A stretch of DNA of 64,000 nt, from contig CAXXHG010000024.1 of the NCBI GenBank assembly GCA_963666315.2, positions 1 to 64,000 of the forward strand, read 5' to 3'. Positions within the stretch are counted from its first letter, which is position 1. Each line of letters opens with the position of its first letter. The notes under the pieces were generated by a model, which saw only the letters and a list, made by a program, of their open reading frames with translations, made no database searches and was not told the origin of the DNA. The position numbers and the translations under genes are program-made. Source of the DNA: Candidatus Binatia bacterium. GTDB lineage: Bacteria > Desulfobacterota > Binatia > Bin18. Positions 8,774-46,909 of the stretch are shown piece by piece.

Positions 8774-8838
8774 ACGACGCCACGTCATACGTCATCGTAT
8801 GGGTCTCTGGTGACGGTTCCTTTTTTGTTTTCGGCATT

Positions 8839-9117: not shown

Positions 9118-9738
9118 AGTTGGTACAGAATATTATGTAAGCGCCGGCTCGGCAACGTCTTCAGCTTCGGCGACTTGCAGGGCTTGAAAGAGGGGCGCCA
9201 GCTCGTCGGGCAAGGCTTCCACGAAGTGGCAATGTATATACGTGCAAGTCTCTAGCTCGCACACATCTTGTATCACGCTGAGTACGCTGAGCTCTCTGGA
9301 ATCTCGCGCTACGTGTCATTTCACCTTCTACCCGTGTGAATTCAAACGCACAACGACCATTAGGCTGCCTAAGGAAGTGGGCAGACACTACAACTTCATG
9401 CCGTTTAACTCGAAATCCCACATAGCTCTTCAATCATAAAAAGTCTCCGAACCGTAGCACCTTTCATGACAAACCTTCAAGTCTCGTATCAAAGGAGTTA
9501 GGCCGCAGCCTCTCGCAGCCAAACTCCTGCGCCATCGTCCAGTTATAACGTCCGCGCTAAAGCCGATCGATTGGACTGGGAACGGCTCTGCCCCCTCGAT
9601 TCAGGATATGTGTACAGATTAGATCATCGTTGTGCTGACATCGCGATGACCTGGAAATTCCCTGTCCGGAGCCTTTCGACTCCGCTCAAGACAGGCTTGC
9701 CAAAGGACTCGGGAGGAATGGCAAGGCACAAACAAAAA

Positions 9739-27061: not shown

Positions 27062-27083
27062 ACTGTTGTTCGTTCCGGAATGT

Positions 27084-28412
27084 TTAGCGTCCCAATCGTC
27101 CGATTTTCGCCATATAGGCTTCCAGCGCTTCGAGTTTTCCTTTCGCTTCGAGCTTTTCAACAATACCGTCCTCTTGCGCGACTGCTGCATAATGACGCAG
27201 GGCAGCTTGGCCGAGTGCCTCAAATATTGCAGTCTCAAAGCGTAAACTCTCAGGATCATTCTGGGCAGTATACTCATGGGCTAACATAAAGTAGAAGTCG
27301 CCCAGCGCAATCTTGTAACTGTAGCGATTTTTACTCTCTTGGTGTTTATCAATTAATTGTTGATAGGCCAAGATCACGCTCTCATTGCCATCTTCAATCC
27401 GGTAGCGGTTGATTGCAAGAAAGGTGACCTTGGCGCGGTCGAGACGCTCCTCTTCTTCAAGAGCCAGTGCGGCATAGGGAGTATCCGCGTATTGCTGGGC
27501 CAGAGCACGCCACTGTCGCGCTTGCGTGTCGAGCGCTTCGACGTATTCCACCGCGTTTGTCGCCTGTGGCGTTTGTCGCCTGAGAGTTTGAAACGCGGTC
27601 AGGGATTGGATCGCCTGGATAGCTTGGGGTTTGAGCCGGCTCTTGCCCTGGCTCACCAGCCGATACTGGGCCAAGGCTTCCTTATAGGCGTGCAAGCCCT
27701 CATAGGCCCGGCCGCGAGTAAAGGCAATAATAGCAGCATAGGCACCGGGATGCTTGGTCTCAAAGTCTTGGAAGCGCCTTAATGTTGCCTTATGGACATT
27801 CGCCCCAGTCACATCTTTGGGCAGCGGAAAGCGATAGGTGTCTTTTGTAGCCACGCGTTGAAACTCGGAGACCGCTTTTAAGAGATCTTGTTCTGTCCGG
27901 TACTGAGCGTTGCCATTGCTTGACGTGTCGCTTCTGGAGACACCGGGTACCCAGGCGAGCCATCCCGAGGACTCCTTGTACTGGGGTTTGCGCAGGGGGG
28001 GCAGAGGCACAGCCTCAGCTCCTTCCTGTTCTTCCTTTTCTTGCTGCGCTGCTGGGGTAGAGGGCTGGGGCTGAGAAGAGACTGGCGGTGGTACCCGGTG
28101 TAGTTCCCCTTGGTCGTTTACCTGGGCCAAAAATTCCCAGGCTAACTCGGTCTCGGGATCGCTGAGAGCGCTTGTTGCACGTGTTTGCGGAAGAGGGGTG
28201 TCCGTTTGGGCGACAGAGAGTGCGGCGGCGTCTTGCGTCTTGACGACAGCCTGTTTTGCACTGCAGCCGGCGAAGAGGATAAGGACTGCGAGTCCGAAGC
28301 CGGAGAAGAGACTCTGGATAGTGTAACCGACTCCATTACTGCGGGAAAAAGATGCCAACATGTTACGGAGTACCGTGGTGGATGGGCAGAGGCTAACAGC
28401 GAGAGAATCCAC
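27084..28412 (-). CDS. TPR-containing lipoprotein
   Basis: Lipobox LFAGC; TPR-like GRAYEGLHAYKEALAQY; start uncertain. Confidence 0.75.
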   Translation of the reverse strand: MDSLAVSLCPSTTVLRNMLASFSRSNGVGYTIQSLFSGFGLAVLILFAGCSAKQAVVKTQDAAALSVAQTDTPLPQTRATSALSDPETELAWEFLAQVNDQGELHRVPPPVSSQPQPSTPAAQQEKEEQEGAEAVPLPPLRKPQYKESSGWLAWVPGVSRSDTSSNGNAQYRTEQDLLKAVSEFQRVATKDTYRFPLPKDVTGANVHKATLRRFQDFETKHPGAYAAIIAFTRGRAYEGLHAYKEALAQYRLVSQGKSRLKPQAIQAIQSLTAFQTLRRQTPQATNAVEYVEALDTQARQWRALAQQYADTPYAALALEEEERLDRAKVTFLAINRYRIEDGNESVILAYQQLIDKHQESKNRYSYKIALGDFYFMLAHEYTAQNDPESLRFETAIFEALGQAALRHYAAVAQEDGIVEKLEAKGKLEALEAYMAKIGRLGR

Positions 28413-28618: not shown

Positions 28619-29698
28619 ATGCAATTCAGCATTACTGCGCACACCAAAATCGACAATTGGGATGTCTTTAAATATGTCGAAGACCTCGGCTTCGATGCCG
28701 CCTGGGTCCCTGACTCCCAGATGATTTGGTCTGACTGCTATGCCACTTTGGCCATAGCTGCTCACAATACCTCGCGCATACGCCTGGGTACCGGAGTTGC
28801 CATTCCAGGCACACGGATTGCTCCAGTCACTGCGCATTCGATTGCAACAATTAACCGGCTTGCTCCGGGGCGTGTCTTTCTCGGCATAGGGACCGGCCAT
28901 ACCGCAATGCGGGTGATGGGCATGCAACCAATGAAGATCAAAGATTTCCGCGAATATCTTCGTGTCGTACGTACCCTTCTAAGAGGAGAAGAGGTTGAAT
29001 ACACGCTAAATGATAAAACGCGGACGATTCAGTTCCTCCACCAGGACCTCGGATTTTTGGACCTGGAACATCCCATTCCCATCTATGTGGCGGCAAACGG
29101 ACCGCTCGCCCTGCGGACTGCGGGTGAGTTCGGTGATGGGCTGGTTTCCCTCTTTAACGAACAGGAAGAAGTCCTGCAGGCCAATATGGATCGAGTCAAG
29201 GCCGGCGCTGAGCGAGCCGGACGGACGCTGCCCGGTAATTTCCATACCACCGCGCTGACAACAGCCGTTGTGCTCAAACCGGGGGAATCCCTAACCTCTG
29301 ATCGCGTCATTGAGGCGTGTGGTTCATGGGTGACCTGTGCTCTGCATTTTGTATACGAGATATACGAGCAAACGGGTCGGGAAGACGGCGTTCCCGAAGC
29401 GTTTCAAGAGGTGTGGGAAGAATATCGGGATCAGGTTGCAAGTATGCAGACGCCTAAGGAAAAGCGATACCTTCAGATTCACGATGGGCACTGCACCTAC
29501 CATGTGCCCGAGGAGCGGCGCTTCATCACCCCCAAGACGATCAAGGGATCGTGCATGGTCGGCGAACCGGACGAGCTGATCGCGGCGGTTCGTCAAGCTG
29601 AGCAAGCGGGTCTTGAGGAAATCTCACTCCTGCCGCCGCTTAAAACAAGCCGGGAGGTGTACAAAGATTTCGCCCAGCAGGTCATTCGGAAATACTAA
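28619..29698 (+). CDS. LLM-class flavin/F420-dependent oxidoreductase (Mer-like)
   Basis: GFDAAWVPDSQ, TSRIRLGTGVA, APGRVFLGIGTG, IPIYVAANGP. Confidence 0.92.
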   Translation: MQFSITAHTKIDNWDVFKYVEDLGFDAAWVPDSQMIWSDCYATLAIAAHNTSRIRLGTGVAIPGTRIAPVTAHSIATINRLAPGRVFLGIGTGHTAMRVMGMQPMKIKDFREYLRVVRTLLRGEEVEYTLNDKTRTIQFLHQDLGFLDLEHPIPIYVAANGPLALRTAGEFGDGLVSLFNEQEEVLQANMDRVKAGAERAGRTLPGNFHTTALTTAVVLKPGESLTSDRVIEACGSWVTCALHFVYEIYEQTGREDGVPEAFQEVWEEYRDQVASMQTPKEKRYLQIHDGHCTYHVPEERRFITPKTIKGSCMVGEPDELIAAVRQAEQAGLEEISLLPPLKTSREVYKDFAQQVIRKY

Positions 29699-30395: not shown

Positions 30396-30698
30396 GATTA
30401 CGAGCCGGGGAGCAGACCGCAGGACCGAAGCTGGGCGCTCGTGCCGTCGATCAGGCCGGAAGACCGAAGAAAATTACCCCTGACTGAGGCGTTTACATTC
30501 GAACTGCACGTAACGTTCTGCCAGGCGGATCTTTCCAGGCTCAGGGACTGTAAGGAAAACTGCAAGATCGACAGAGAAGGAAAGCCCACGTCTCGATGGT
30601 TCTACGCTGAGCACGGAAACCAGCAGTATTGTTCTGCGCGATGTGGGAATCGCGCAGAACAATCGACGGTATCGCGAGCAGAAGAACTTGGCACGTGA
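30396..30698 (+). pseudogene. CGNR zinc-finger domain gene remnant upstream of integrase
   Basis: RLRDCKENC...RWFYA...QQYCSARCGNR; no convincing start. Confidence 0.55.
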
Positions 30699-30760
30699 GA
30701 ATCTGTGAAAGTGGCCCTGTCGAAGCGGCGACGAAAATAACGGGGAACAGAGGGCTAACG

Positions 30761-31867
30761 ATGCCGAAATATAAACATGGCTCAGGGACTGTGTATCTAC
30801 GCGGTCATACGTGGTGGATCAGTTACTCTGTGAAGGGCACGCAGGTCTGGGAATCGGCGCGGACGAGGGACAAGGCGGAAGCCAGAAGAGTATTGCGGGC
30901 GAAGCTCGGAAAGATCGCAGAGGGGCACTATGCAGGCCCAGCGATGGAACGGGTCACATTTGACGAACTGGCGGAGGGTATTCTCACTGACTATCGAATC
31001 AATGGCCGCAAAACGGCCAAATGGGTGGAGCAGCGCACCCGGCTGCATCTCCGCCCGTTCTTCGGCGCGCAAAAGGCCCAGGAGATAACCTCACAGGATG
31101 TGCAGGCGTTCATCCTGCATCGGCACGACCTTGGGGCGAGCAATGGGGAAATAGGGCGCGAATTGGCATGTCTCAAGCGCATGTTTAATCTCGCGTTGCA
31201 GGCAGAGAAGATAATCCGAAAGCCATACATCCCGACCCTCACTGAGGACAATGTGAGAAAAGGATTTTTTGAGCGTATCGAGTTTGATGCAGTGCTTGCC
31301 AAGCTACCAGAATATTTGCGTCCACCTATGACGTTTGCCTACCAAGTCGGCTGGCGCGTCATGAGTGAGGTACTACCGCTGACGTGGGAGCAAGTGGATT
31401 TGGAGGTGGGAACCGTCAGACTGGAAGTTGGGACGACAAAAACGAAGAAAGGTCGTCTCGTATATCTGCCCAACCTTTTGCGTGGCGTTCTTGAGAATCA
31501 GTGGCGCGAACACCTTGCGTACTATCCTGACTGCCCATACGTGTTTCACCGGAGTGGCAATGAAATCCGTTACCCATATGTGGCCTGGAGAAGGGCTTGC
31601 AAGGAGGCCGCGCTGGCGGGTAAGATTCCCCACGACTTCAGGCGAACCGCCGTAAGAAATAGGGTGAGGGCAGGTATCCCGGAGCGTGTGGCAATGGAAA
31701 TAGCAGGCCATAAGACAAGAAGCATTTTTGACCGCTGCCACATTGTTTCTGAGGGAGACCTGAAAGAGGCGGCTGAGCGCCTCGATGCAGCTTTTGAAGC
31801 GCAAACAATGACAAAAACAATGACAATCGACTGTTGTGAGGTGACTGCGCCTAGTCTAAGGCGTTGA
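30761..31867 (+). mobile_element. Tyrosine recombinase/phage integrase, probably inactive (catalytic Tyr read as Cys)
   Basis: GWR..EV, TKTKKGR, PHDFRRT, AGHKT motifs; SIFDRCHIV where DRY is expected. Confidence 0.88.
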
Positions 31868-31879
31868 TTTTGTTACTGT

Positions 31880-31964
31880 GCCGGAGTGGTGGAATAGGCA
31901 GACACATGGGACTTAAAATCCCATGAAGCATAGCTTCGTGCGGGTTCAAGTCCCGCCTCCGGCA
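31880..31964 (+). tRNA. tRNA-Leu (anticodon TAA), CCA not encoded
   Basis: GCCGGAG/CTCCGGC acceptor stem, TGGGA-CTTAAAA-TCCCA anticodon arm, long variable arm, GGGTTCAAGTCCC T-arm. Confidence 0.95.
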
Positions 31965-31981
31965 TCAATAAAATCAGTAGG

Positions 31982-33213
31982 TTACGAGGTTTCTGCCGCG
32001 CTCTGTTTTGGCGCGGTGTTCTTTTTCGTGGTACCCTCGTTGTAACTTTTTCGCGATGAATCGTTTGATTTGCCCGTTATAAGGTCTTTGAAGCTTCTTG
32101 GGGCATCGTCGCCTTGGACACTGCGCAGATGGTCGAGCTGCGCACGGAGATAGGACTCGGCTGAGGCACGGCTGTTGCCGCTGATCGCCCGTACTGCGTC
32201 AAGCGGCTGGTTTTCCACGATTACTTTCTGGGTCATTCACGTGCCCTTCAAATCGTGGAGCCAGAGCCCGACGATGCCTGTTTTTTTCCGGGCCTGGCGG
32301 AAGGGCCACTCGACTTTGCTGTATGCGACCGGTTGCCCGGCGGGCGCCAGAAATAGGCGGTTGCTCAGGGATCTTATTTTTTTGCCTTTGCGCGCCTCCC
32401 AGAGGGTGAGCAAGGTCTCGGCCGCATATTGGCTCAACGGCACGAGACGCGGCTTTTTGGTTTTGGTGTGGGTGGAGGTGACGCGGATAAGCGCCTGGTC
32501 AAAGTCGATGGTCGGTGGCATGGGGTCGTTCCACTCACCTGTTGGCCATTCGAGCTGTATCACCTCGTTGGCCCGCATACCTGTCTGACGTTGCAGGATG
32601 AGGGGCGGGCGCGCATAGTCGGCATGGCGTCCAATATCTGGGCGAGCTCTTCTGGTGACGCGATACGCGTCCGCTTGTTGTTCTCTTGCTCTAAATGGAT
32701 CACTGGGCGTCGGTCGATCTTCCCGCCTTGTTCGGCCAGGATGAACATGGAGCGTAGGAGTGCCAGCTCCCTGTTCATCCTGGCGATGGAAGGGGGGCGT
32801 TTGTGACGTGTGATCTGCTGTCCGCGCCACAGTTTGTATTCTGCGACACGACTCGTTGTGACGTCTTCGAGTCGATCTTCTCCGAAGAAGTCTGTGAGTG
32901 ATCGTGCGGAATAATGGTCTCTCCTGATGCTGCGTTTGTTGGCGTGGAGGGTCAGCCAGGTCTGCGCCCACTCTGCAAAGGTCAGGTGGTTGCGCTCCTG
33001 CTCTTGTTGCTCACGGTCGAAGTCGAAGCGCTGGGCATTTTGGACCAAGCGGCGGTCACGTTCCTTGAGCGCGAATCTGAGATTGTCGCCGCAGGGAAAG
33101 CGCCGCCGGACTTGTTTCCAGTCACGGAAGGCCACGTAGTACTGGAGGCGCTGCTTGGCGTCTTGAGTTGTGTATTCCTGGGTCGCGATGTGATGGTGTT
33201 TTTTGCGTGGCAT
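31982..33213 (-). pseudogene. Second tyrosine integrase, frameshift near 32620 and in-frame TGA at 32237-32239
   Basis: N-terminal TFAEWA..SIARMNRELALL; then TGMRANEV, TKTKKPRLVPL, WLHDLKGT*, then AISGNS..AESYL in ORF 31982..32236. Confidence 0.85.
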
Positions 33214-33798: not shown

Positions 33799-34644
33799 TT
33801 GTCCATGTCGAGCATCTTTTTTATCTTTTTCATTTGGGTCTCAGCCTGTGCCCTTGCTGGCTGCCTGGAATTCAAGGGCGACCCGCCTGAACTGGGTCAC
33901 TATGCCTATGGCCCCGATCAATCTGTAACAAGGTGTGTCTTAAACGAACGACAGGGCAGGGGTGGCGTGACGAATGACGAGCAATCAGAAAGCGGAATTA
34001 CATTCTCCGTCCGAACGCCGGTCAATTATGACCCCACGCTCTCTCATCCGCTCCTCATGGTATACGCCCCTGCTGGATCGAGCCGTTTTCGCTCCGAGCG
34101 TTTTACTGGTCTGACTTTTGCAGCCACTGCGGCTGGGTTTGTGGTCGCCTACGCGGATGCGCGCCGACTCTCGCTCGACGGTATTCCGGACCTGGGGACT
34201 ATCCCTCAGCTCATTGCAAAAAAATGGTGTATCGATGAAAAGCGCATCTATCTGACTGGCCATTCCGATGGCGGCACGGTTGCGCTTGCTCTCGCGCTCT
34301 TAGACGAGACGCGCCATATCCCGGCTGCTATTGCTCCGAGCGCGGCTGGATTCACGGAGGCGGATTTAGAAACGTTTATGTGTCCAGACGCGCTGCCCGC
34401 TATGATTTTGCACAGTGCCGATGATCAGCTTTTCCCTGGGTACGGAGCGGAAATCGCTTCTTGGTTGGCCGCTTGTAATGGATGTCAGGCGCATCCCGGT
34501 GAAAAGGACGAAAACGGGTGTATGACCTACTCCGGCTGCGAGGAGGGAAGGCAGACTGTGTATTGTGAAGGAACAGGCGCGCATAGTGTATGGCCCACTC
34601 TCGATACCGTACTCCTTTCTTTTTTCGCGGGCAAACCTCAGTAG
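33799..34644 (+). CDS. PHB depolymerase/LpqC-like alpha/beta-hydrolase lipoprotein
   Basis: Lipobox ALAGC; [15 protein letters not shown] nucleophile elbow, HSADD, GAHSVWP. Confidence 0.85.
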
Positions 34645-34862: not shown

Positions 34863-35450
34863 ATGAGTAGTGCCAGCCGTATCTTCTTTTCTCTCTTGTT
34901 GCTGACAGTGATTGGTTGCTTAGGCTCCCCTGTCGCGTGGGCGCATCGAGACAGAGGACCGGATGACCCCTGTCGACGGGAAATCGGAACTTCGCTCCTC
35001 CATATCACCGTCTACCAGACCCAGTTTGACCCCGTGGCTGAATATTGTGAAGAAGTCCCACACGCGGGGAAGGCCTTCTTAGTTGTAGATGTGACCCCGG
35101 ATCTGTGGGGGATGCCCATCGGGGTGGAACTCGTTGCGACAAATGAAGTCGGCCAGACGCGTACTATCCTCTCGCTGCCTACACAAGTGTATGAGCGCGG
35201 GGTGGCCAATACGGAAGTGGTTTTGAACCCTGAGGTCAGCTATGAGGTGCGCGTTGTCTTAGAGCTGGGATCCGACCGAGAACCGCAGGAATTTTCATTT
35301 CCCTTTCAGGTTGCAGCATGGTATAAGGCCCTGATCATCCCAGCCCTGATTGTGCTCGGGCTGATCGTTATCATGGCCGTATCCGTAGTTCGGTATAATG
35401 TAGTCTCGCGGCGGGAAGAAGCGCTAGCGGAACAAATGGATGCAGTATAA
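34863..35450 (+). CDS. pmoD: PmoD/AmoD-like periplasmic copper protein
   Basis: Signal AWA|H; DPC-x7-LLHITVYQ...EYCEEVP..G..LVVD; C-terminal TM. Confidence 0.75.
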   Translation: MSSASRIFFSLLLLTVIGCLGSPVAWAHRDRGPDDPCRREIGTSLLHITVYQTQFDPVAEYCEEVPHAGKAFLVVDVTPDLWGMPIGVELVATNEVGQTRTILSLPTQVYERGVANTEVVLNPEVSYEVRVVLELGSDREPQEFSFPFQVAAWYKALIIPALIVLGLIVIMAVSVVRYNVVSRREEALAEQMDAV

Positions 35451-35513
35451 GGTGATAGCATCACAAAGTGACAACGTCACCAACACAGGCGCGAATATAG
35501 AGGAGGGACACTT

Positions 35514-36362
35514 ATGGCTCAGGCACAAGCTGTGCAAAAGGCACCAAAGGGTTCTGGCGACGGCTCGATGACGAGTGGTAGCCCTGTCAATCCGATGGAC
35601 TGGTCGGTTGGATGGCATCCGTTGTTCTGGGGCTGCGGGCTCATCATGTTAGCCAACGTCTTTTTCTGGTACTGGAATTACGCCTTCATGTTAACGGCTG
35701 GACTCAACTCGGCCAGTCCGGAATTCAGCACGTATTACATGACGCTGTTCTGGGGCGAGCTCATCGTCTTAGGCATCTTTAGTGGCGTATGGTTTGGCTG
35801 GTTGATACGGACCGGCCGTGCCATTCAAGGCCAAGAGTGCTCGCCTGCCGAAGAGGTACGCCGGATCGCAATTTTGTGGAGCCTCATTGGCGCGCTGAGT
35901 CTGTCCGTTTATATGGAAGCGAGCTTCTGGCCCAACTGGGATGGATCTTGGCATCAAACCATGGTGCGGGACACCGCGCTCACGCCGACCCATATTCCGA
36001 TGTTTTATTTCTTCTTCCCCCTGTCGGCCATTCTGGCCATCGGCACCTATGTCTACGGGCGGTATTACATTCCCGCTCTGTACGGTAAAGACAAGGGCTT
36101 TCCGTGGTCGTTCTTCTTGTTGATTAGTGCGTGTGCGCTCGAAGTTATGGGTGTTGCGTTCAACGAATGGGGCCATAGTCTGTGGATCTCGGAGGAGATT
36201 TTCTCCGTGCCCTTTCACTGGCCGTTCGTCATCTATGGCTGGCTTGCCGCCGGCATGTTCGCCGTGTGGGGTGAGACTGCCCTGCGTCTATACGAGGTTG
36301 AGAAGATTGAGGAGGACGCCAATTTAGAATCCTCGCTTGAGCCGAACATGGTCGCTGACTGA
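35514..36362 (+). CDS. pmoC: Copper membrane monooxygenase subunit C (PmoC/AmoC family, divergent; substrate unknown)
   Basis: GLNSASPEF, EEVRR, DGSWHQTMVRDTALTPTH, NEWGHSLWISEEIFSVPFHWPFVIYGW. Confidence 0.93.
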   Translation: MAQAQAVQKAPKGSGDGSMTSGSPVNPMDWSVGWHPLFWGCGLIMLANVFFWYWNYAFMLTAGLNSASPEFSTYYMTLFWGELIVLGIFSGVWFGWLIRTGRAIQGQECSPAEEVRRIAILWSLIGALSLSVYMEASFWPNWDGSWHQTMVRDTALTPTHIPMFYFFFPLSAILAIGTYVYGRYYIPALYGKDKGFPWSFFLLISACALEVMGVAFNEWGHSLWISEEIFSVPFHWPFVIYGWLAAGMFAVWGETALRLYEVEKIEEDANLESSLEPNMVAD

Positions 36363-36442
36363 TACTGGTACAGGTTTGCGTTCGATTGAACACGGATAAC
36401 CTCAGATAACCTCGGGGATCCTGGTACAGAGAGGCAGCACGC

Positions 36443-37246
36443 ATGGCGGCAGGCACGACAACGGTAACGGACCTTGCAGACGCAGCCGAACGGCAAAAAC
36501 GGCTCGAACTCAAGGAACTGCTCAACAAAAAATACAAATGGCTAGACTGGAAGTGGGACCTCGTCTTCTGGACCACGGCCATCTTCGTGGTTGCCGGCGC
36601 TGGCGATATTACCAAGCAGTTGTTCGCCGGCGATTGGGACTTCTGGACTGACTGGAAAGATCAGCAGTGGTGGCCGGTTATCACGGCCTTTGCCACCATC
36701 ATCATCCCGTCCGCGCTCCAATACATTCAGTGGGCAGCCTGGCGGTTTCCGACCGGCGCGACCTACACCGCCTGCTGCATGTTTATGGCGGCCTGGGTGG
36801 GGCGTTATTTTCAGTGGGATTTGGCAACCCACTACCCGCTGAACTTTGTGTGGCCCATCTCCTTGGTGTGCGCTGGGATCTTGATGGACTGGACCCTGAT
36901 GAAGACGAAGAGCTTCATCCTGACATCACTCGTTGGCGCGCATGTCTGGGCGATCGCGGTGTGGGCGTATAATTATGTTCCGTTGGCTGCCTTTCTGCAG
37001 CCGGCCCATTTTATGGACCATGTAATCACGATCGCGGATGTCCAAGGAATCGCGTATATCCGGTCACAGACGCCGGAATACCTGCGCATGATCGAGCGCG
37101 GTGCGTTGCGCAGTTTCCTGGGTGAGACCCAGTATGTCTCGCTGGTGTTCGGTGGTACTGTCGCGTTTCTCGGATACTGGGTGGGTCAGTTCATTGGCCG
37201 CTACTTGGCAATTTGGCCGATTCGACGCTACTTGAAAACCTTGTGA
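36443..37246 (+). CDS. pmoA: Copper membrane monooxygenase subunit A (PmoA/AmoA family, divergent)
   Basis: AGDWDFWTDWKDQQWWP, PTGAT, YPLNFVWP, TIADVQG..YIRSQTPEYLRMIERGALRSF. Confidence 0.93.
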   Translation: MAAGTTTVTDLADAAERQKRLELKELLNKKYKWLDWKWDLVFWTTAIFVVAGAGDITKQLFAGDWDFWTDWKDQQWWPVITAFATIIIPSALQYIQWAAWRFPTGATYTACCMFMAAWVGRYFQWDLATHYPLNFVWPISLVCAGILMDWTLMKTKSFILTSLVGAHVWAIAVWAYNYVPLAAFLQPAHFMDHVITIADVQGIAYIRSQTPEYLRMIERGALRSFLGETQYVSLVFGGTVAFLGYWVGQFIGRYLAIWPIRRYLKTL

Positions 37247-37253
37247 GACGGCT

Positions 37254-37589
37254 ATGATGAGCGTAGCGAAATCGGTCAGAAATTGCATAGTGCCGTTTGT
37301 GTTCATGTGTATTGCGCCCTCGCTGGCGCATGCGCACGGGATGGACGCGGCGGCGATGGCGCCACCTCTTATTACCTCCGGGCTGCTGGCGTTTGTGTGT
37401 TATTGGTTGGTGATGTTGTGGCCTGCGTCAAAAAGAGAAGGCGCCTGGATGAATGGGTCTGGGGCTGCGCAGCCCTCGGAAAAGTTTCAGACCATACGCA
37501 TTAAGCGCAAGCCGCGCCTGCGTGTCATAGAGACGAGCAGGCAGCGCGAGGACGACCAGCCGGCGACAAGGAGAGCGGCCGATGGCTAG
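37254..37589 (+). CDS. Small exported single-TM protein of unknown function between pmoA-like and pmoB-like genes
   Basis: Signal AHA|HGMD, hydrophobic helix LITSGLLAFVCYWLVMLW, basic tail; starts 8 nt after the pmoA stop and its stop overlaps the pmoB start region. Confidence 0.7.
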   Translation: MMSVAKSVRNCIVPFVFMCIAPSLAHAHGMDAAAMAPPLITSGLLAFVCYWLVMLWPASKREGAWMNGSGAAQPSEKFQTIRIKRKPRLRVIETSRQREDDQPATRRAADG

Positions 37590-38829
37590 GCGATTCGTCA
37601 TCAGCGTCTGCACGCTGGCTCTTGCCGGACTTATCAGTGTCCCCAGGGTGTTCGCTCATGGTGAAGCCGCTGACGAGCCTTTTCTCAAGAACATGACCAC
37701 GGCGTTTTTCAATGTATCGATTTCTCCCACCGAAATCGAAGTCGGAGAGCCTATTCGCATTACTGGTTCCGTGAAGATCTTGGAGATCTGGCCGCATACC
37801 TTAGATACACCGGAAATGGCCTCCATTATTCCCGTCGTGCCTGGTCCGGTGTTTGTCTTGAGGGAACGGCTGGTCAATGGGCAGGCCTCGATAGGTTCGT
37901 TCTTCGCGCAAAAAGGCGGCATTTATGAGTTCGACATGGAGCTCTTGGGCAAAGAACCCGGAGACTGGCACGTCCATCCCGGTATAGCCATCCAGGGGAC
38001 GGGCACGCTGCTGGGACCAGGTGAATGGGTCCGAGTCAAACCCAGCGCTACGCCGCTTGAATTTCCGGTGACCTTGCTGTCCGGGGAGACGATCGAACTC
38101 AGCACGTATGGCGGTCAATTCGTCTGGTGGTGGTCATTTGCCGGATTCTTGCTCGGTGTCGTCTGGATATTGTACTGGACGCTGAACAAAAGGACGGTGG
38201 CAACCCTTGCCGTAACTATCCAGCTTCCGGTCAATGATGATGCGCCCGACATTGGCTTGATCACCCCGCGTGACCACATGTGGATGAATGTCATTGCCGG
38301 CGTCACCTTGGTGATGCTCGTTGTCGGCTGGACCTATGCCACAACAAATGCACCGGTCCGGTGGCCGCAGCAGACCGACTGGTTTACGCCCCGCTTTATT
38401 TCTTCGGGCGAAAAGATGGCCGAGGTGCATACCAACGGAGCAACCTTTGATGAGGCGTCCGACACCCTGGAAATGAAGCTCCAGGTTACGAATGTGCTAG
38501 ACAGCGAAATCCAGCTCAAGCAACTCATCGTGGCCATGGCGACGTTTGTGAACGGCGGCGAGCAGGAGCAAGCCCAAGCCGGGCCGAGTGATTTCGTTGG
38601 CGCTCTGGAAGTGTCGCCGAATGGAACCGTTGCCCCTGGAGAAACCAAAGATCTCACGTTGACGGTAACGAGCACGCTGTTCAGTCAAGAACGGCTGATA
38701 CCTCAGAACGCCCCGCAGCAATTTCTTGGTGGAGTCCTCCGGTTCGAGAATGCGCAGGGCGAGCATGAATTAGTGACGGTTCGTTCGGGTGTCATATCAA
38801 CACAGTTCCGTTCGACCTACCGCCCGTAA
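37582..38829 (+). CDS. pmoB: Copper membrane monooxygenase subunit B (PmoB/AmoB family, divergent)
   Basis: Signal VFA|HGE, PGPVF, PGDWHVHP..QGTGTLLGPGEWV, VTLLSGETIEL, two TM helices, second domain with VAPGETK and GGVLRF. Confidence 0.93.
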   Translation: MARRFVISVCTLALAGLISVPRVFAHGEAADEPFLKNMTTAFFNVSISPTEIEVGEPIRITGSVKILEIWPHTLDTPEMASIIPVVPGPVFVLRERLVNGQASIGSFFAQKGGIYEFDMELLGKEPGDWHVHPGIAIQGTGTLLGPGEWVRVKPSATPLEFPVTLLSGETIELSTYGGQFVWWWSFAGFLLGVVWILYWTLNKRTVATLAVTIQLPVNDDAPDIGLITPRDHMWMNVIAGVTLVMLVVGWTYATTNAPVRWPQQTDWFTPRFISSGEKMAEVHTNGATFDEASDTLEMKLQVTNVLDSEIQLKQLIVAMATFVNGGEQEQAQAGPSDFVGALEVSPNGTVAPGETKDLTLTVTSTLFSQERLIPQNAPQQFLGGVLRFENAQGEHELVTVRSGVISTQFRSTYRP

Positions 38830-38882: not shown

Positions 38883-39464
38883 TTGGTGGGCAGTATCTTG
38901 TCAGTGTTCTCTCTCGTCGCTATCTTCCTCGTGCCAATATCGGCCTGGGCGCACGGTGGCGTCGCGATCGACATGGACCCGTGCGTGCAGCGTGCCGGCG
39001 CCTATCTGGTCCATTTTTCTGCGTACCAACCGCAAGTGAATGCAATCGAGGAATTCTGTAGTAGCGTTCCGCAAACGGGCAATGTGATCCTCGTTTTCGA
39101 TCTGATTGATCCCGAACTGCGCAAGAAATCGGCTGCCGTTCGCATTGTTGAAGAGACCGGGGCGGCTGAACCTCGTCTGCTGCTCGATATCCCGCCAAAA
39201 ATCTATCCCAATGGGGTCGTGAATGCTGAGGTTAGGCTTGATACGCCGGGCCGGTATACGGCCATTCTGACGATTGATGATGTCGACGACTCGATCGAAT
39301 TTCCTATCCGCGTGGCGGTGCTCTCGACCACGATGATGGTGCTGATCGGTGGCATCGTGGTCGGCAGTGGTGTGGGCTATTATGCGGTCAGTCGGAAACA
39401 GGGTTGGCCTCCATTCAAAGCAAAAAACGAGTCGTCACTCCGGTTGGTGAAAGGGGAAGGATGA
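38883..39464 (+). CDS. pmoD: Second PmoD/AmoD-like protein
   Basis: AWA|HGGV..DPC-x7-LVHFSAYQP...EFCSSVPQTGNVILVFDLIDPELR; C-terminal TM. Confidence 0.85.
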   Translation: MVGSILSVFSLVAIFLVPISAWAHGGVAIDMDPCVQRAGAYLVHFSAYQPQVNAIEEFCSSVPQTGNVILVFDLIDPELRKKSAAVRIVEETGAAEPRLLLDIPPKIYPNGVVNAEVRLDTPGRYTAILTIDDVDDSIEFPIRVAVLSTTMMVLIGGIVVGSGVGYYAVSRKQGWPPFKAKNESSLRLVKGEG

Positions 39465-39679: not shown

Positions 39680-41425
39680 TTGTCCCTTCCCCCCTTTCCC
39701 TTACGCGTTCCTCACAGTACATGGTGGACGATGCTGGTGCGTCGTTTGCTCTTTGTTTTTCTCTTGTGTGGCCTCGTCGCGGGTAGTGCGATCTTTGTCG
39801 TGCCGCGCTCCTGGCTGCCCGCTCCACTCAAAAACCTGGCGTATCGCTATATTGGTGAAACAGCCTATCGAGCCCCCCCGGAAAGTCGTCACATTGATCC
39901 GGTGCCAGTCGAGCCGTTTTGTCTGGATAAGCATCCGGACTGGCGTAAACGCCAGACGGTTGAAGGCGTAAGCATAGAAGAATCGCCTGTGTGTGATCCG
40001 GATAATCCAGCCGAAGTCGCCGCTTTTGTCAAAGGCACGAACAATATTTCTGTGCATACATTGATGCAGACACGGCTGACGCCGACTACGGTGCTGAAAG
40101 AGAACGACGTGGACGGTGATGGCGATCCGGATGAGATCCATATCCGGTTCGAGGTAGTGGAGTTAAACGGGTACTCGCCGGATGATCCTGCTCCCTTTCC
40201 GGCGTATGCCATCGCTCCCGGAGTACAGCCCGGCCTGTGGGTATTTGCTCCGAAATCGCGCGGCATGGCGACCGAAAATTTTGCAAGCGAGGACGCCCAC
40301 GCCACTCTCCGCGCCCCGTCGCCGGTTATCCGCATTGAACAGGGCGACACGCTACGCGTGACGTTGGAAAATACCCACTATCTGCCGCATACGATACATT
40401 TCCACGGAGTTGACCATCCCTTCGTCGATGCCGCCGGGGAGGGCAATGACGGTGTCCCTATTACGAGTGAAATGCCGGTCGCGCCGGGTGAGAGCCGAAT
40501 ATATGAAATGACTCCACGTCAGACCGGGACCATGTTTTATCACTGCCATGTCCAACCCCAGGTGCATATTCTCATGGGACTGCAAGGCATGTTTGTGGTT
40601 GAGGAGAATCGGCCGAATAATTGGCTACAGACCTTAAACGTCGGCGCTGGTCGGGTCCGGCATTCGTCGGTAGCTATCCGTGAGACTTTTGATCGCGAGT
40701 TTGATCTGCACTATCAGGATATCGATCGTTCGCTGAATAATATGATTCAGACTGCCAATGATCCGCGTCTGATCGCGCAAGCAACGAATCGGCGGTACGA
40801 TATCACGGATCACAGTCCGGACTACTTCTTACTGAACGGGCGCTCGTTTCCGTACACGATGCGTGAATCCCTTATTGTGGTTGTGCCTGATGAAGATATC
40901 AAACTGCGCGTATTGAACGGTGGTGCCGAAGGGCTGTCGCTCCATACGCACGGACATAAAGTCACGATTACCCACTATGACGGCGTCGAGCATAATCCGG
41001 CTGCGCAAATCACGCGCGATGTCGTCTGGGTCAGCCCCGCCCAGCGGGTGGACCTGCACCTCAAAACAATAAACGACGGGCTGCATAATTACGGCGCAGG
41101 TATCTGGCTCCTACACGACCACAAGGAAAAGGCGATTACGACCGACGGCATCAACCCTGGTGGGAATATCAGCGCCATTGTGTACAAAGCGTTTCTGGGC
41201 GAAGCCGGCCGGCCTCAAACCCAGGGCATGGATTGGGCGCCGTTTTTTACCGAAGAGTATTACCAGAAGAAAATTCCGATCTGGGCCGGATTGGATGAGA
41301 GAGGACTGCTTGGAGAGGCCGGTGGTGAGCCTTTCCCTTTCAGCTATGCGCTCTTGTGGGGCCTGGGCATAGGGCTCTTACTCAGCGGTGCGTTTGCGCT
41401 CGGTCGGTCCGTGCGGCGAGCGTGA
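39680..41425 (+). CDS. Membrane-anchored two-domain multicopper oxidase (T1 site in domain 1 only)
   Basis: HTIHFHG, MFYHCHVQPQVHILMGL, LHTHGH, WLLHDH; TM at both ends; start may be ATG 39731. Confidence 0.88.
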   Translation: MSLPPFPLRVPHSTWWTMLVRRLLFVFLLCGLVAGSAIFVVPRSWLPAPLKNLAYRYIGETAYRAPPESRHIDPVPVEPFCLDKHPDWRKRQTVEGVSIEESPVCDPDNPAEVAAFVKGTNNISVHTLMQTRLTPTTVLKENDVDGDGDPDEIHIRFEVVELNGYSPDDPAPFPAYAIAPGVQPGLWVFAPKSRGMATENFASEDAHATLRAPSPVIRIEQGDTLRVTLENTHYLPHTIHFHGVDHPFVDAAGEGNDGVPITSEMPVAPGESRIYEMTPRQTGTMFYHCHVQPQVHILMGLQGMFVVEENRPNNWLQTLNVGAGRVRHSSVAIRETFDREFDLHYQDIDRSLNNMIQTANDPRLIAQATNRRYDITDHSPDYFLLNGRSFPYTMRESLIVVVPDEDIKLRVLNGGAEGLSLHTHGHKVTITHYDGVEHNPAAQITRDVVWVSPAQRVDLHLKTINDGLHNYGAGIWLLHDHKEKAITTDGINPGGNISAIVYKAFLGEAGRPQTQGMDWAPFFTEEYYQKKIPIWAGLDERGLLGEAGGEPFPFSYALLWGLGIGLLLSGAFALGRSVRRA

Positions 41426-41438
41426 AGGGAAGCGTAGT

Positions 41439-42155
41439 ATGGGGGTACATTTTCAAAAGATCGTGCGGAAAATCATGAGAGTACGAAAAGGGCAGCCACA
41501 TAGGGCTGCCCCTACACTGCTTGTGCTCATTATCTCGGTGCTTCTTTCAAGTCTAGTCAGTTCGGCCCAAGAGCATCAGCACCACCCGATGCAGCATAAT
41601 ATGCAGCTAGATGAGACCGGCATGGTCATGAACGAAAACACCGACCAGTTGCCGCGTGGCTGTCCTCGTATTGCGGGCGAGCAATCAATTACTGTCCGCG
41701 CAGGGAAAGAATTTGCCTCTCCAGGCAGCATGTTTTCTTATGATCAGCATGAATGGCATGTCGAGCCGTGTACCAAACTCACCGTGACGCTTGAGAATAC
41801 GGACAACGTCCGCCATCAGTGGATGCTGCACGGCCTGCCGCGCTATGTGTATCTGCAGGGCATGTTCACTTTAGAGGTGGCCGGCCGAGGGCAACGCACG
41901 GGTACGTTTATCCTCCCCGCAGGCAACAAAACCTATCTGGTTCACTGCGACGTGTCCCAGCATATGGAAAAAGGCATGAAAGCGCAGCTGAAGGTCGGCA
42001 CTGGGGACGGCGATTTGCCGAGTATTCCCGGCATAACCGGCCCACGTGTGTATGATACGTATCCCCTGGTCTGGAACTGGTGGACGCATGGGGCTTTGCT
42101 ACTGACGGGGATAGTCAGTGTGGTTTTTGTCGGCAGGCACTTGCATATTTTCTGA
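41439..42155 (+). CDS. Membrane-anchored cupredoxin (type 1 copper) with His/Met-rich N-terminus
   Basis: QEHQHHPMQHNM, VRHQWMLHG, HCDVSQHMEKGM (C-x4-H-x4-M), C-terminal TM. Confidence 0.85.
   Translation: MGVHFQKIVRKIMRVRKGQPHRAAPTLLVLIISVLLSSLVSSAQEHQHHPMQHNMQLDETGMVMNENTDQLPRGCPRIAGEQSITVRAGKEFASPGSMFSYDQHEWHVEPCTKLTVTLENTDNVRHQWMLHGLPRYVYLQGMFTLEVAGRGQRTGTFILPAGNKTYLVHCDVSQHMEKGMKAQLKVGTGDGDLPSIPGITGPRVYDTYPLVWNWWTHGALLLTGIVSVVFVGRHLHIF
41490..41515 (-). repeat. GTAG REP-like palindrome inside the cupredoxin 5' coding region
   Basis: Reverse strand gtaggggcagccctatgtggctgccc; encodes GQPHRAAPT. Confidence 0.7.
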
Positions 42156-42290: not shown

Positions 42291-44003
42291 ATGCGAGATT
42301 TCTGGTTGCGGGGATTGCTATATTTTACCCTCGCTCTCGTCCTTGTATCGCCCTCGACTCTGTATGCCGATCATCATGGACAGAGTGACCATGCCCTCAA
42401 GCCGGTCACGCATGAGCGCTTGGTTAATAGTGCCGCCAATTATGCTGACTGGCTGATGTACGGCGGGAATTATGAAGGCTGGCGTTTCAGCGCACTCGCC
42501 GACATCGACCGTCAAAATGTAAAGAAGCTCCAGGCTGCGTGGATTTTTCAGACCGGCGTGCCTGCCCAAATGCAGGCTTCGCCCGTGGTGGCCGATGGCG
42601 TGATGTATGTGACTGCGGCGTATAACAAAATTTTCGCCTTAGACGCGGCGACGGGCAAGCCGCTGTGGAAATACGACCATTCATTGCCGGATGATATGCG
42701 CATATGCTGTGGTCCCGGCAACCGTGGCGTCGCGCTTGCCGGGGATAAAGTCATCATGGCCACCCTGGATGCGCGTGTTGTGGCGCTGGATCGCAAAACC
42801 GGCGAGGTGGTGTGGAATACAGAGGCCGACAACTACGCCCGAGGCTTCAGCTTCACGCTCGCGCCGCTGATTGTCAAAGACAAAGTCATCGTCGGCATTG
42901 CCGGTGGTGAATACGGCATACGCGGTTATATCGACGCGTATGATGTTGAGACCGGAGAGCGTCAGTGGCGGCGTTACACTGTCCCCGACGAGGGTGAGCC
43001 CGGAGTCGAAACCTGGGCGGGCGACTCATATAAAAACGGCGGGGCCCCGGCTTGGGTGACCGGTTCGTATGACGCTGACCTGGACCTTGTATATTGGGCT
43101 ACCGGAAACCCTGCGCCGGACTGGAACGGTGATGGACGTGAAGGGGATAACCTGTACTCCAACTCCGTTCTGGCACTTGATCCGGAGACGGGCGAGGTCA
43201 AATGGTATTTCCAGTTCACCCCGCACGATGTCTGGGATTATGACGGCAATACCGGCCTGTTCCTGCTTGACGTTATGCGTAGTGGTCAATCTGTCAAAGC
43301 CTTGGCCCAGCCGAATCGTAATGGCTTCATGTATGTGCTGGATCGCACCGATGGAAAATTCCTGCACGGCGCGCAATATGTCGAACAGCTGAACTGGGCG
43401 AAGGGGCTAGATGAAAAGGGCCGCCCACTGGTTGACCCCAAATATGTTCCCATGAAAGGCGGCAATCTGGAACTGATCTGTCCGGGCAATGCGGGCGGCC
43501 AAAATGGGTCGTACGCTGCGGCCTATAGTCCGCGTGTTAACCTCATTTTTGTGCCGACGATTGAGAGCTGCGCCAAAATGGAAAAAGCGAAGTCTATTTT
43601 CATCAAAGGCATTCCGTTCTGGGGCGGCGGTCCTGGCCAAACGCAAGGCGACCTGGGGGTCGCGTATGGCCATGTCTCAGCTATTGATCCTACCAGCGGC
43701 GAAGTAAAATGGCGCTATAAGGACGAGTGGCCCATGATGGGTGGTGCACTTGCGACCGCAGGCGGATTAGTTTTTACCGGGAACCAACAGGGCTATGCGC
43801 TCGCGCTAGACGAGGCGACTGGAAAAGTCTTATGGAAGTTCCAAACCGGCTCGGCTGTCCGCGGGCAACCGATTACGTATAAAGTTGGTGGCAAGCAATA
43901 TGTGGCCGTGCCGAGTGGGGCCGGCGGCTTGGTCGTCGATATTGTGGGAAAATACCCGCACACGACACTCGGCAGTTCGGTTGCCGTGTTTGCGCTGCCT
44001 TAG
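42291..44003 (+). CDS. PQQ-dependent alcohol dehydrogenase (methanol/ethanol family), lanthanide-type DxD motif
   Basis: Signal peptide, vicinal ICCG, NRGVA, GGEYGIRG, GNPAP, PHDVWDYDG, Trp-docking repeats; no CXXCH. Confidence 0.92.
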   Translation: MRDFWLRGLLYFTLALVLVSPSTLYADHHGQSDHALKPVTHERLVNSAANYADWLMYGGNYEGWRFSALADIDRQNVKKLQAAWIFQTGVPAQMQASPVVADGVMYVTAAYNKIFALDAATGKPLWKYDHSLPDDMRICCGPGNRGVALAGDKVIMATLDARVVALDRKTGEVVWNTEADNYARGFSFTLAPLIVKDKVIVGIAGGEYGIRGYIDAYDVETGERQWRRYTVPDEGEPGVETWAGDSYKNGGAPAWVTGSYDADLDLVYWATGNPAPDWNGDGREGDNLYSNSVLALDPETGEVKWYFQFTPHDVWDYDGNTGLFLLDVMRSGQSVKALAQPNRNGFMYVLDRTDGKFLHGAQYVEQLNWAKGLDEKGRPLVDPKYVPMKGGNLELICPGNAGGQNGSYAAAYSPRVNLIFVPTIESCAKMEKAKSIFIKGIPFWGGGPGQTQGDLGVAYGHVSAIDPTSGEVKWRYKDEWPMMGGALATAGGLVFTGNQQGYALALDEATGKVLWKFQTGSAVRGQPITYKVGGKQYVAVPSGAGGLVVDIVGKYPHTTLGSSVAVFALP

Positions 44004-44945: not shown

Positions 44946-45803
44946 ATGAAAATTGGCGTCTTTGAGTTTGTTATTGATACATCGGTTGATCCCGCTGTGA
45001 TCGCAAAGCGAGCCGAGGAGTTGGGTTTTGGCTCGTATTGGGTGCCTGAGCATGCTGTTATTCCGATTAAAACGAGTACGCCCTATCCAGGCTCGGACGA
45101 CGGAATAATTCCAGATGCATATGGGCGTATCACCGATCCGTTTGTCTCCCTCGCTCGTGCGTCTGCGGTGACCAAGACTATTGAGCTCGGCACCGGTATT
45201 TGTCTGATTCCAGAACATAATCCGCTCGTACTGGCTAAGGCCGTGGCGACTTTAGACCATTTTTCAGGTGGCCGTTTTATCTTCGGCATTGGGGCCGGCT
45301 GGCTTAGAGAAGAAACCGAAATCATGGGTGGTGATTTTGACCACCGCTGGGGCCAGACCAAGGATGCCGTCCTGGCCATGAAGGAATTGTGGACCCAGGA
45401 AGAGGCCGAGTATCACGGCAAGTATTACAACTTCCCGGCTGTCCGCTCTTTCCCCAAACCTGCCAGGAAACCACATCCCCCTATTTTCATGGGCGGATCG
45501 TCCAAATATGTCTTCAAACGTGTGGTCGAATGGGGCGACGGCTGGATGCCTGTTCTCTCGCCGGTCGAATATATCAAAGAAGGGCGGCAACGCCTCAATG
45601 AGCTGGCTGAGCAAGCCGGCCGCGACCCCAAGGAAATCGCTGTCATGGCCTTCGGCTGGCCTGGAAAATTCCGTACCGGAGACGAAATCAAAGAACTTGA
45701 ATCAGCCGGTGTCGATCATGTCACTATTTGGTTGCAGCAAAGCGAAAGCGGAGAAGAGGCTGTCGTGGCGGAATTGGAGTCGTTAGCGAAGTCAGTTCTA
45801 TAG
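44946..45803 (+). CDS. LLM-class F420-dependent-type oxidoreductase
   Basis: AEELGFGSYWVPEH, LGTGICL, GRFIFGIGAGWLREE, PKP..KPHPPI. Confidence 0.92.
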   Translation: MKIGVFEFVIDTSVDPAVIAKRAEELGFGSYWVPEHAVIPIKTSTPYPGSDDGIIPDAYGRITDPFVSLARASAVTKTIELGTGICLIPEHNPLVLAKAVATLDHFSGGRFIFGIGAGWLREETEIMGGDFDHRWGQTKDAVLAMKELWTQEEAEYHGKYYNFPAVRSFPKPARKPHPPIFMGGSSKYVFKRVVEWGDGWMPVLSPVEYIKEGRQRLNELAEQAGRDPKEIAVMAFGWPGKFRTGDEIKELESAGVDHVTIWLQQSESGEEAVVAELESLAKSVL

Positions 45804-45901: not shown

Positions 45902-46909
45902 TTGATAAAATTCGGCATCATGGTGATGCCTCAGCATCCGCGAACGGATTCGCCGGTAAAGCGGTTCCGAGAGGCGGTTGCGTTGACGCGTATAGCACGT
46001 GACGCCGGGCTGGACTCGATTGCGTGTGGCCAGCACTTCCTCGCTCCGCCGTATCAGAACATCCAAAGTCTGCCCCTTCTTGCGCGGCTTGCGGCCGAGA
46101 GTGGTGCGATGTCACTCGTGCTGTCTGTCATTCTTCTGCCGCTCTACAGTCCAGTCGGCATCGCCGAAGATGTTGCCTCGCTTGACGTCATCAGTGAAGG
46201 CCGCGTTGTCTTTGGTGTCGGGCTGGGCTACCGGGATATCGAGTATCAAGCTTTTAATACGCGCCGACGTGAGCGCATTCCGCGTTTTGAGGAATCTTTG
46301 GCACTCATCCGGCGCTTGTGGACAGAAGAGGCGGTCTCGTTTCAGGGCAAGCATTTCAGTATCGAAAGCGCGACCTGCACGATACGGCCCGTCCAGCAGC
46401 CGCATCCGCCTATCTGGATTGCCGCGAATAACGATAGTGCCATTGAACGGGCAGGGCGGCTGGGCTGCTCTTGGCTCGTAAATCCGCATGCCACAATGGA
46501 AACGCTACAACGCCAGATGAAGCTATATACAGATACCCTGGTTGCATCCGGTCATCATGCTCCTGCAGAAATCCCCGTTATTAAAGAGATGCATGTCGCC
46601 AAGACGCGCGAAGAGGCGATTGCGGTTGCCCAGCCCTATTTAGAGAAAAAATATCAAGCGTATGCAGACTGGGGACAGGATAAGGAACTCCCTGGCGGGG
46701 AGTCCTTTCGCATGTCGTTTGAAGCCTTAGCTAAAGACCGCTTCATCCTGGGTAGTATTGAAGAGGTTATTCAACAGATTGAGGTCCATCACCGGCAGCT
46801 TGGGATTAACCATTTCATCTTTCGCATCTGGTGGCCGGGCATGGAGGCCTACCACGCCTACCGCGTGGTCGAGCTGATGGCTGAATACATCATCCCGTAT
46901 TTCCGATAG
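45902..46909 (+). CDS. LLM-class flavin-dependent oxidoreductase
   Basis: GQH, AEDVASLDVISEGR..GVGLGYR..E, RPVQQPHPPIWIAAN. Confidence 0.9.
   Translation: MIKFGIMVMPQHPRTDSPVKRFREAVALTRIARDAGLDSIACGQHFLAPPYQNIQSLPLLARLAAESGAMSLVLSVILLPLYSPVGIAEDVASLDVISEGRVVFGVGLGYRDIEYQAFNTRRRERIPRFEESLALIRRLWTEEAVSFQGKHFSIESATCTIRPVQQPHPPIWIAANNDSAIERAGRLGCSWLVNPHATMETLQRQMKLYTDTLVASGHHAPAEIPVIKEMHVAKTREEAIAVAQPYLEKKYQAYADWGQDKELPGGESFRMSFEALAKDRFILGSIEEVIQQIEVHHRQLGINHFIFRIWWPGMEAYHAYRVVELMAEYIIPYFR

Follow-up and report, generated by a model that had tools for sequence, protein, structure and literature searches.

The first 64,000 nucleotides of contig CAXXHG010000024.1 (assembly GCA_963666315.2), referred to here as the window, encode an intact copper-containing membrane monooxygenase (CuMMO) of an uncultured marine Candidatus Binatia bacterium. 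The list of open reading frames (ORFs) of the window places the enzyme in four packed frames on the + strand in the order C-A-orfX-B, with orfX starting 8 nt past the stop codon of the subunit A gene and overlapping the start of the subunit B gene by 8 nt.

35514–36362, + strand: CuMMO subunit C, 282 aa (Pfam AmoC, PF04896, 152 bits, over cut-off)
36443–37246, + strand: CuMMO subunit A, 267 aa (Pfam AMO, PF02461, 189.8 bits, over cut-off)
37254–37589, + strand: orfX, 111 aa (no Pfam, NCBIfam or PDB match)
37582–38829, + strand: CuMMO subunit B, 415 aa (Pfam Monooxygenase_B, PF04744, 240.9 bits, over cut-off)

Three Pfam-matching subunits in contiguous genes on one strand place the cluster in the CuMMO superfamily. 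The NCBIfam equivalogs for particulate methane monooxygenase (pMMO) and those for ammonia monooxygenase (AMO) were not reached by any of the three, the scores being 165.6 and 148 for subunit C (cut-offs 319 and 280.6), 198.1 and 172.1 for subunit A (cut-offs 290 and 318.15) and 259.9 and 183.5 for subunit B (cut-offs 336 and 394.9). Since the Pfam families are matched and all six equivalog cut-offs are missed, the operon encodes a real but divergent CuMMO. By its sequence the enzyme falls outside the pMMOs, and methane is probably not its substrate. It is an unexceptional representative of a CuMMO clade that has been described but not characterized.

Residues at the proposed copper sites

PmoA, PmoB and PmoC of the window were aligned by phmmer to chains in the PDB (for PmoA of Methylococcus capsulatus Bath, 1yew_B; for PmoB, 3rgb_A and 6cxh_A), with E-values of 1e-40 to 1e-54 for the window subunits against PDB chains. 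A second alignment was made with MAFFT from a set comprising the window, HmoCAB of the hydrocarbon monooxygenase (HMO) of Mycolicibacterium chubuense NBB4 (plasmid NC_018022.1), PxmABC of Methylomagnum and a second CuMMO encoded by the same genome. The ligand set expected of a CuMMO is complete. PmoC carries both the CuC ligands (D143-x3-H147-x12-H160) and the CuD ligands (N217-x3-H221-x13-H235) unchanged, and the CuB His-brace is retained in PmoB, where Bath H33 corresponds to H26, directly after the residues AFA, and H137/H139 to H130/H132.

The residues of the proposed tricopper site and of the bis-His site are, in contrast, replaced. The phmmer alignment of the window and Bath PmoA sequences is gap-free from the segment of the first transmembrane helix (TM1) through G-D-W-D-F-W, and pairs H38 with D55, H40 with T57, M42 with Q59 and M45 with A62, the MAFFT alignment giving the same columns; Bath D47, W48 and D49 are retained as D64, W65 and D66. 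Further along the chain, E100 is replaced by A117 and N103 by G120, while R104 is kept as R121 (GEWINRY versus AAWVGRY). No His, Met or Cys able to substitute for the lost residues was found within the PmoA TM1 segment, residues 42–68. In PmoC, Asn141 stands two residues ahead of the CuC aspartate, a position held by Glu in Methylocystis, NBB4, Pxm and the second copy. This Glu is presumably E154 in Bath PmoC numbering; the motif position itself is what was compared. The alignment of window PmoB with 3rgb_A is gap-free across residues 9–111 and shows both bis-His ligands to be gone, with H48 replaced by A41 and H72 by K65. The motifs concerned lie at the following positions.

36602–36640, + strand: PmoA TM1 motif, GDITKQLFAGDWD (coordinates checked)
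36785–36808, + strand: PmoA MAAWVGRY (coordinates checked)
35931–35942, + strand: PmoC P140-N141-W142-D143, in place of the A-E-Q-D of other CuMMOs

An alignment shift hiding a His, Met or Glu was considered and rejected: the G-D-W-D-F-W, W-x-x-R and D-x3-H motifs anchor the columns, and phmmer and MAFFT agree. A first-pass annotation of this DNA, made by eye against Bath numbering, had described the CuB, CuC and CuD ligands as intact, PmoA H38, M42 and E100 as changed to D, Q and A, PmoC E154 as changed to N, and the bis-His site as absent. These readings all hold in the alignments (D55, Q59 and A117 in PmoA; the motif position N141 in PmoC; A41 and K65 in PmoB), and proper alignment, which had been named as a possible refutation, does not bring the tricopper-site residues back by either of two concordant methods. 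In comparison with the pMMO of M. capsulatus Bath and that of Methylocystis sp. M/Rockwell, the window enzyme has the same three-subunit architecture and identical CuB, CuC and CuD ligands, but lacks H38, H40, M42, M45, E100, N103, the Glu before the CuC Asp and both bis-His ligands, besides falling below the equivalog cut-offs and standing on the opposite side of the PmoA tree.

Conservation and kinship of the clade

The counts that follow were taken over two sets of 121 sequences, consisting of the window together with the 120 listed of 211 matches for PmoA (E ≤ 0.001) and the 120 listed of 342 matches for PmoC, and they hold among the matches listed. PmoA position 55 is Asp in 96 sequences, Asn in 20 and Phe in three, with a gap in two; position 59 is Leu in 96 and Gln in 17; and position 117 is Ser in 56, Ala in 39, Thr in 18, Val in six and Gln in two, with Glu in none. 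Thr57 is conserved in 119 of the 121 sequences, Ala62 in 118 and Asp64, Trp65 and Asp66 in 120 each. In PmoC, Pro140 and Asn141 are invariant (121/121) and position 142 is Trp in 117 and Gln in four; the ligands Asp143, His147 and His160 are likewise invariant, and Asn217, His221 and His235 are found in 119, 120 and 120 sequences, respectively. Among 13 clade sequences of PmoB, His26, His130, His132 and Ala41 are invariant, and Lys65 is present in at least 90%. No His, Cys or Met is shared by all of 25 clade PmoA sequences, Met191 alone attaining 90%. The tricopper-site and bis-His residues are absent clade-wide, with other conserved residues in their place: D/N55, T57, K/R58 and A62 in PmoA TM1, A/S/T117 and G120 further along PmoA, and P140-N141-W142 in PmoC. 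Because the replacements are kept among 121 homologues of PmoA and of PmoC, the changes at the tricopper positions are more than chance, and the clade counts rule out a private degeneration of the window gene.

Within the clade, PmoA positions 55 and 58 (window positions 36605–36616) vary together. Asp55 is accompanied by Lys or Arg at position 58 in 92 of 96 sequences and Asn55 in none of 20, all 20 of the latter carrying Met, Leu, His or Asn there; the three sequences with Phe55 all have Tyr58. This covariation fits a salt bridge across one turn (i/i+3) of TM1 better than a metal ligand, and may be taken as a hint to that effect.

A genome scan with one genome per species returned, as its best 80 loci, sequences labelled almost throughout as Candidatus Binatia, Binataceae, 'delta proteobacterium' or Deltaproteobacteria metagenome-assembled genomes (MAGs). 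PmoA identity to the window is 96% at the closest locus (L001) and 81–91% at the next ones (L002–L032); the remoter clade members among the matches listed (58–78%) carry the labels Acidobacteria/Acidobacteriota, Dormibacteraeota, Caldinitratiruptor, Carbonactinospora, Lentzea and Egibacteraceae. In a PmoA tree of 35 rows, in which the pMMO and AMO rows were recognized through their motif and the named PxmA rather than through organism names, the window clade comprises 13 rows (support 100/100) and is nested in a group of 22 rows (99/99) together with NBB4 HmoA and the second copy of the genome, with PxmA and the 'GEWINRY'-type representatives forming the opposite group. The tree thus assigns the clade to the hydrocarbon-monooxygenase side of the CuMMO family, as a lineage that appears separate from NBB4 HMO.

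Close kinship with NBB4 HMO was rejected on the grounds of the separate clade and an identity of 43%, window PmoA being about equally distant from Bath PmoA and NBB4 HmoA. The NBB4 operon resembles that of the window in its CAB order, in its half of the tree, in the conserved CuB, CuC and CuD columns and in an E100 column that is Gln, likewise not Glu. It differs in retaining the His (H38), the Met (M42) and the Glu that precedes the CuC Asp, all of which the window lacks, and in having no orfX annotated between its A and B genes. Papers citing work on NBB4 HMO (e.g. PMC13058606) report oxidation of C2–C4 alkanes and mutagenesis of the enzyme.

The tricopper columns vary across the CuMMO family as well. 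In a set of 40 rows (36 representatives of at least 200 aa from a 50%-identity library, the window and three named references), of which a few are poorly aligned, the H38 column holds His in 21 and some different residue in 15, with four rows gapped, and the E100 column holds Glu in only ten. The PmoA residues H38, M42, D47, D49 and E100, termed highly conserved in methanotrophs rather than family-wide in the relevant passage of PMC9145241, are reduced in the window to D47 and D49. Reviews and structure papers, where they touch on the bis-His site, call it non-conserved, and a quantum-refinement study reports no support for copper at H38/M42/E100, the trinuclear site, in 7ev9 (PMC12576850).

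The clade itself has been described in papers under the names 'Actinobacteria/SAR324-type', 'bmoA-like' and 'putative pmoA Binatales'. According to Murphy et al. (2021, mBio; PMC8262859), the CuMMO genes of Binatota occur in CAB, CAxB or CAxxB order and belong to the TUSC clade and to an 'Actinobacteria/SAR324' bmoA-like clade, PmoB H33/H137/H139 are conserved and the substrate could be methane or short alkanes. The window enzyme is a member of the second of these clades, with Binatia as its closest relatives and a C-A-x-B gene order; it shares the taxon and the three PmoB histidines, and nothing essential is different. A later preprint (bioRxiv 10.64898/2026.02.02.703227) sets 'Putative pmoA Binatales' among the hydrocarbon monooxygenases and describes Binatia MAGs with such genes that lack methanotrophy modules. 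The PmoC ligands, the tricopper positions and the features of orfX and of the two PmoD-like proteins described below go beyond the discussion in the available parts of Murphy et al. (2021) and of the 2026 preprint. Literature searches, with supplements outside their scope, found no paper tabulating the tricopper columns for the Binatia clade, and this detail may be unpublished.

orfX, the PmoD-like pair and the surrounding genes

The product of orfX opens with a predicted signal peptide ending in AHA before HG; one transmembrane helix (…CYW…LWP) follows, and the tail is basic. A homologue lies between the A and B genes at 76 of the best 80 Binatia loci (73 of 80 by tblastn at 1e-4). These homologues are 77–135 aa long with a predicted mature N-terminal His, and Ala27, His28, Pro38, Tyr50, Trp56 and Pro57 are invariant among 18 sequences. 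An orfX profile produced no match in the PDB or NCBIfam, and orfX itself has no match in Pfam. A prediction of the complex of C (29–265), A (30–267) and B (26–415) with orfX (28–80) gave ipSAE values of 0.01 and 0.00 without controls, and is neutral on binding.

Now that pMMO and AMO are known to have supernumerary single-helix subunits, it is a fair hypothesis that orfX is a candidate for a fourth, supernumerary single-helix subunit. The pMMO of Methylocystis sp. Rockwell is reported to bind a 23-residue protein and the AMO of Nitrosomonas europaea a protein from a 46-residue ORF (PMC11725843), and single-transmembrane subunits are described for N. halophila AMO. The orfX product resembles these subunits and archaeal AmoX/Y/Z in being a small single-transmembrane protein; it differs in being encoded within the operon, in its cleavable signal peptide and conserved N-terminal His and in having no match to a PDB chain.

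The genes on either side of the cluster are as follows.

33799–34644, + strand: alpha/beta-hydrolase-like gene (weak Pfam hydrolase matches, all under cut-off)
34863–35450, + strand: PmoD-like protein 1, 195 aa (signal peptide cleaved between WA and H, periplasmic domain, C-terminal transmembrane helix)
38883–39464, + strand: PmoD-like protein 2, 193 aa (paralogue of protein 1, 28% identity; mature N-terminal His)
39680–41425, + strand: multicopper oxidase (Cu-oxidase_3, Cu-oxidase_2 and Cu-oxidase domains)
41388–42155, + strand: cupredoxin-like protein with C-terminal transmembrane helix (PF07731, 25 bits; syntenic with the multicopper oxidase)
42291–44003, + strand: pyrroloquinoline quinone (PQQ)-dependent alcohol dehydrogenase (TIGR03075, 608.9 bits, cut-off 480)

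PmoD-like protein 1 has no match in Pfam or NCBIfam, and a protein atlas search with a PmoD-like protein returned unnamed clusters only. A profile of the family matches PmoD (6cpd) with an E-value of 3.4e-15. Both flanking proteins have the architecture of PmoD/AmoD, with a signal peptide, a cupredoxin-like periplasmic domain, two invariant cysteines and, at the C-terminus, a transmembrane helix, and the Cys pair and His of the PmoD motif are kept. The motif C-x7-M-x-H-xn-C is not reproduced, however, as the pair reads C37-x7-L45-x-H47…C62, with Leu in place of Met and an additional invariant N-terminal His; His28, Cys37, His47 and Cys62 are invariant, as is Leu45 in nine sequences. The Met of the motif is required for the CuA site of PmoD according to Fisher et al. 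(2018; PMC6189053), where a multicopper oxidase and a second pmoD are also given as neighbours typical of the family, an arrangement shared by the window. Four secreted proteins that begin with His (PmoB, the orfX product and the two PmoD-like proteins) are encoded in this one cluster.

The alpha/beta-hydrolase-like gene is also found upstream of the cluster at the closest Binatia loci. The multicopper oxidase gene lies downstream of B at 25 of the best 80 loci, all of these 25 being among the closest relatives, and many loci stop before this point. In the PDB, the entries closest to the PQQ-dependent alcohol dehydrogenase are two quinoprotein ethanol dehydrogenases, 6zcv and 6zcw (427 and 426 bits), followed by XoxF 6dam (350 bits) and MxaF types (331 bits or less). 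In four of five related genomes an orthologue of this dehydrogenase comes directly after the cluster on its downstream side, the exception being a soil Binataceae genome. The genome of the window encodes several PQQ dehydrogenases that belong to the methanol/ethanol family. The second CuMMO operon of this genome (genome G000, contig C43, locus L084, 6284–9325; C at 6284–7126, A at 7198–7941) has His, Met and Met in the H38, M42 and M45 columns and Glu ahead of the CuC Asp; a 31-bp tandem duplication (8514–8579) divides its B gene into ORFs at 7981–8583 and 8738–9325, a break that could be an assembly artefact.

Upstream of the cluster are phage-integrase-family genes at 30629–31867 (+ strand) and 32237–32971 (− strand) and a tRNA-Leu(taa) gene at 31879–31966, and the cluster may occupy a hotspot of integration or the border of an island. 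Three genes for luciferase-like oxidoreductases (F420/FMN-type) surround it at 28619–29698, 44946–45803 and 45902–46909. Two large overlapping ORFs (754 and 442 aa) on the − strand at 25013–28412 match neither Pfam nor NCBIfam.

Contigs from four RNA libraries (three studies) match the C, A and B genes at 90–100% identity. One of them, of 1778 nt, covers 35468–37243, and two are identical to the window; the cover does not extend to orfX or to the PmoD-like genes.

Substrate, activity and models of the active site

The reading that best accounts for these observations, with a probability of roughly 0.7, is that of an intact Binatia CuMMO of the hydrocarbon type that works through subunit C, as is held for pMMO and AMO, and probably acts on a substrate other than methane. 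Oxygen activation and hydroxylation of the substrate would then take place in the CuC/CuD pocket of subunit C. The altered interface of subunits A and C would be a remodelled polar patch or channel wall rather than a metal site, with Asp55 and Lys/Arg58 possibly joined by a salt bridge one helical turn apart; in AMO, TM1 of subunit A is described as helping to form the channel wall beneath CuC and CuD. The substrate would be a small non-methane molecule, most likely a C2–C4 hydrocarbon, and the neighbouring PQQ dehydrogenase of the ethanol type would take over the alcohol product. Copper or electron handling may fall to the multicopper oxidase, the cupredoxin and the two PmoD-like proteins, with the orfX product as a candidate additional subunit. 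The ethanol-type dehydrogenase and the missing Fae and Mch, neither of which was found in the 92%-complete genome, lean towards a substrate of two or more carbons but give no proof. PMC12533140 is among the literature that speaks in favour of this reading.

Several points weigh against it. The clade has no member characterized for activity, substrate or metal content, and the properties of NBB4 HMO may not carry over, since identity is 43% and that enzyme keeps H38, M42 and the Glu. The covariation of positions 55 and 58 possibly represents one or a few subclades and not repeated events. The RNA-library contigs are no proof of transcription because DNA carry-over is possible, and those at 90–95% identity derive from relatives. 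Methanol as the alcohol is not excluded by the downstream gene because ethanol-type PQQ dehydrogenases are broad in substrate, and the absence of Fae and Mch is weak evidence in a MAG of this completeness, in which other formaldehyde routes were not searched. Five of nine Binatota genomes with this CuMMO type also hold a methanol dehydrogenase (PMC8262859), and a sponge study reads Binatota pmoA transcripts as methane oxidation (PMC9999580).

Among the alternatives, a different small substrate (acetone or another C3 oxygenate, ethylene or ammonia), in a role unrelated to growth on alkanes, is unlikely. CuMMOs are promiscuous, and the clade is spread over many phyla, with members labelled Acidobacteriota, Dormibacteraeota, Caldinitratiruptor, Carbonactinospora and Lentzea, whereas the syntenic partner in the window is a PQQ alcohol dehydrogenase, which fits such a role less well. 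The ORFs annotated next to the cluster include no gene resembling a GMC/acetol dehydrogenase, which likewise speaks against this alternative.

It is improbable that marine or sponge-associated Binatia have in this enzyme a genuine methane monooxygenase, and would thus oxidize methane without H38, M42, M45, E100, E154 or the bis-His site. The CuB, CuC and CuD ligands are as intact as this would call for, several methanol/ethanol-family dehydrogenases are at hand in the genome, and methane is left open for this CuMMO type by Murphy et al. (2021), while the authors of the sponge study infer a methane sink from Binatota pmoA in their metatranscriptomes. Against these stand the grouping with hydrocarbon-type CuMMOs, away from the half of the tree that holds pMMO, AMO and Pxm, the failure to reach any pMMO or AMO equivalog cut-off, a linked dehydrogenase with ethanol dehydrogenases, and not XoxF or MxaF, as its nearest relatives, the missing Fae and Mch, and the Binatia MAGs of the 2026 preprint that hold such genes without methanotrophy modules. 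A bolder combination, in which marine or sponge-associated Binatia oxidize methane with the window enzyme and the orfX product acts as a genuine fourth subunit, adding a further copper-binding N-terminus on the periplasmic side, is more doubtful still. If it were true, nature would offer direct evidence, in a methane-oxidizing CuMMO without His, Met or Glu at the tricopper positions and without the bis-His site, that both sites are dispensable. That the operon is decaying or has lost its function, as might be suspected from the broken B gene of the second operon and from the integrase and tRNA-Leu genes just upstream, is very hard to reconcile with four open, tightly packed and overlapping ORFs, a full set of copper ligands, strong conservation among the 121 homologues listed and matching contigs in RNA libraries.

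For the non-methane hydrocarbon-type CuMMO preferred here, the bearing on models of the pMMO active site is limited. The first-pass annotation had presented the operon as a natural test of these models that, if the enzyme is active, supports a PmoC-centred mononuclear site. The ligand pattern does agree with a site in subunit C, but as a test it is much weaker than claimed: the enzyme is not a pMMO, the pattern is clade-wide, H38 and E100 vary across the family and the conclusion is already in print, the active site having been put in subunit C on the basis of Verrucomicrobia without CuB, HMO mutagenesis, spectroscopy and electron cryomicroscopy (PMC13058606, PMC11725843). As its substrate and activity are conjectural, the enzyme cannot tell where methane is oxidized. 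The residue pattern agrees with the accepted active site in subunit C and does not test it. The reshaped substrate pocket proposed in the same annotation is plausible, given P140-N141-W142 beside the CuC Asp and D55, T57 and K58 on PmoA TM1, unlike the residues of pMMO.

If shown to be active, the enzyme would add one more CuMMO lineage that conserves only the CuB, CuC and CuD ligands, which fits catalysis in subunit C; for methane, even activity would settle nothing because the substrate probably differs. The clade has a wide distribution that takes in Binatia, Acidobacteriota, Actinomycetota, Dormibacteraeota and further groups, and its genes are routinely tallied as 'pmoA' in methane-cycle surveys without any characterized member. 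Its fixed differences, namely the P-N-W-D motif of PmoC, the D-I-T-K turn of PmoA TM1, orfX and the Met-less PmoD pair, offer targets for understanding the choice of substrate.

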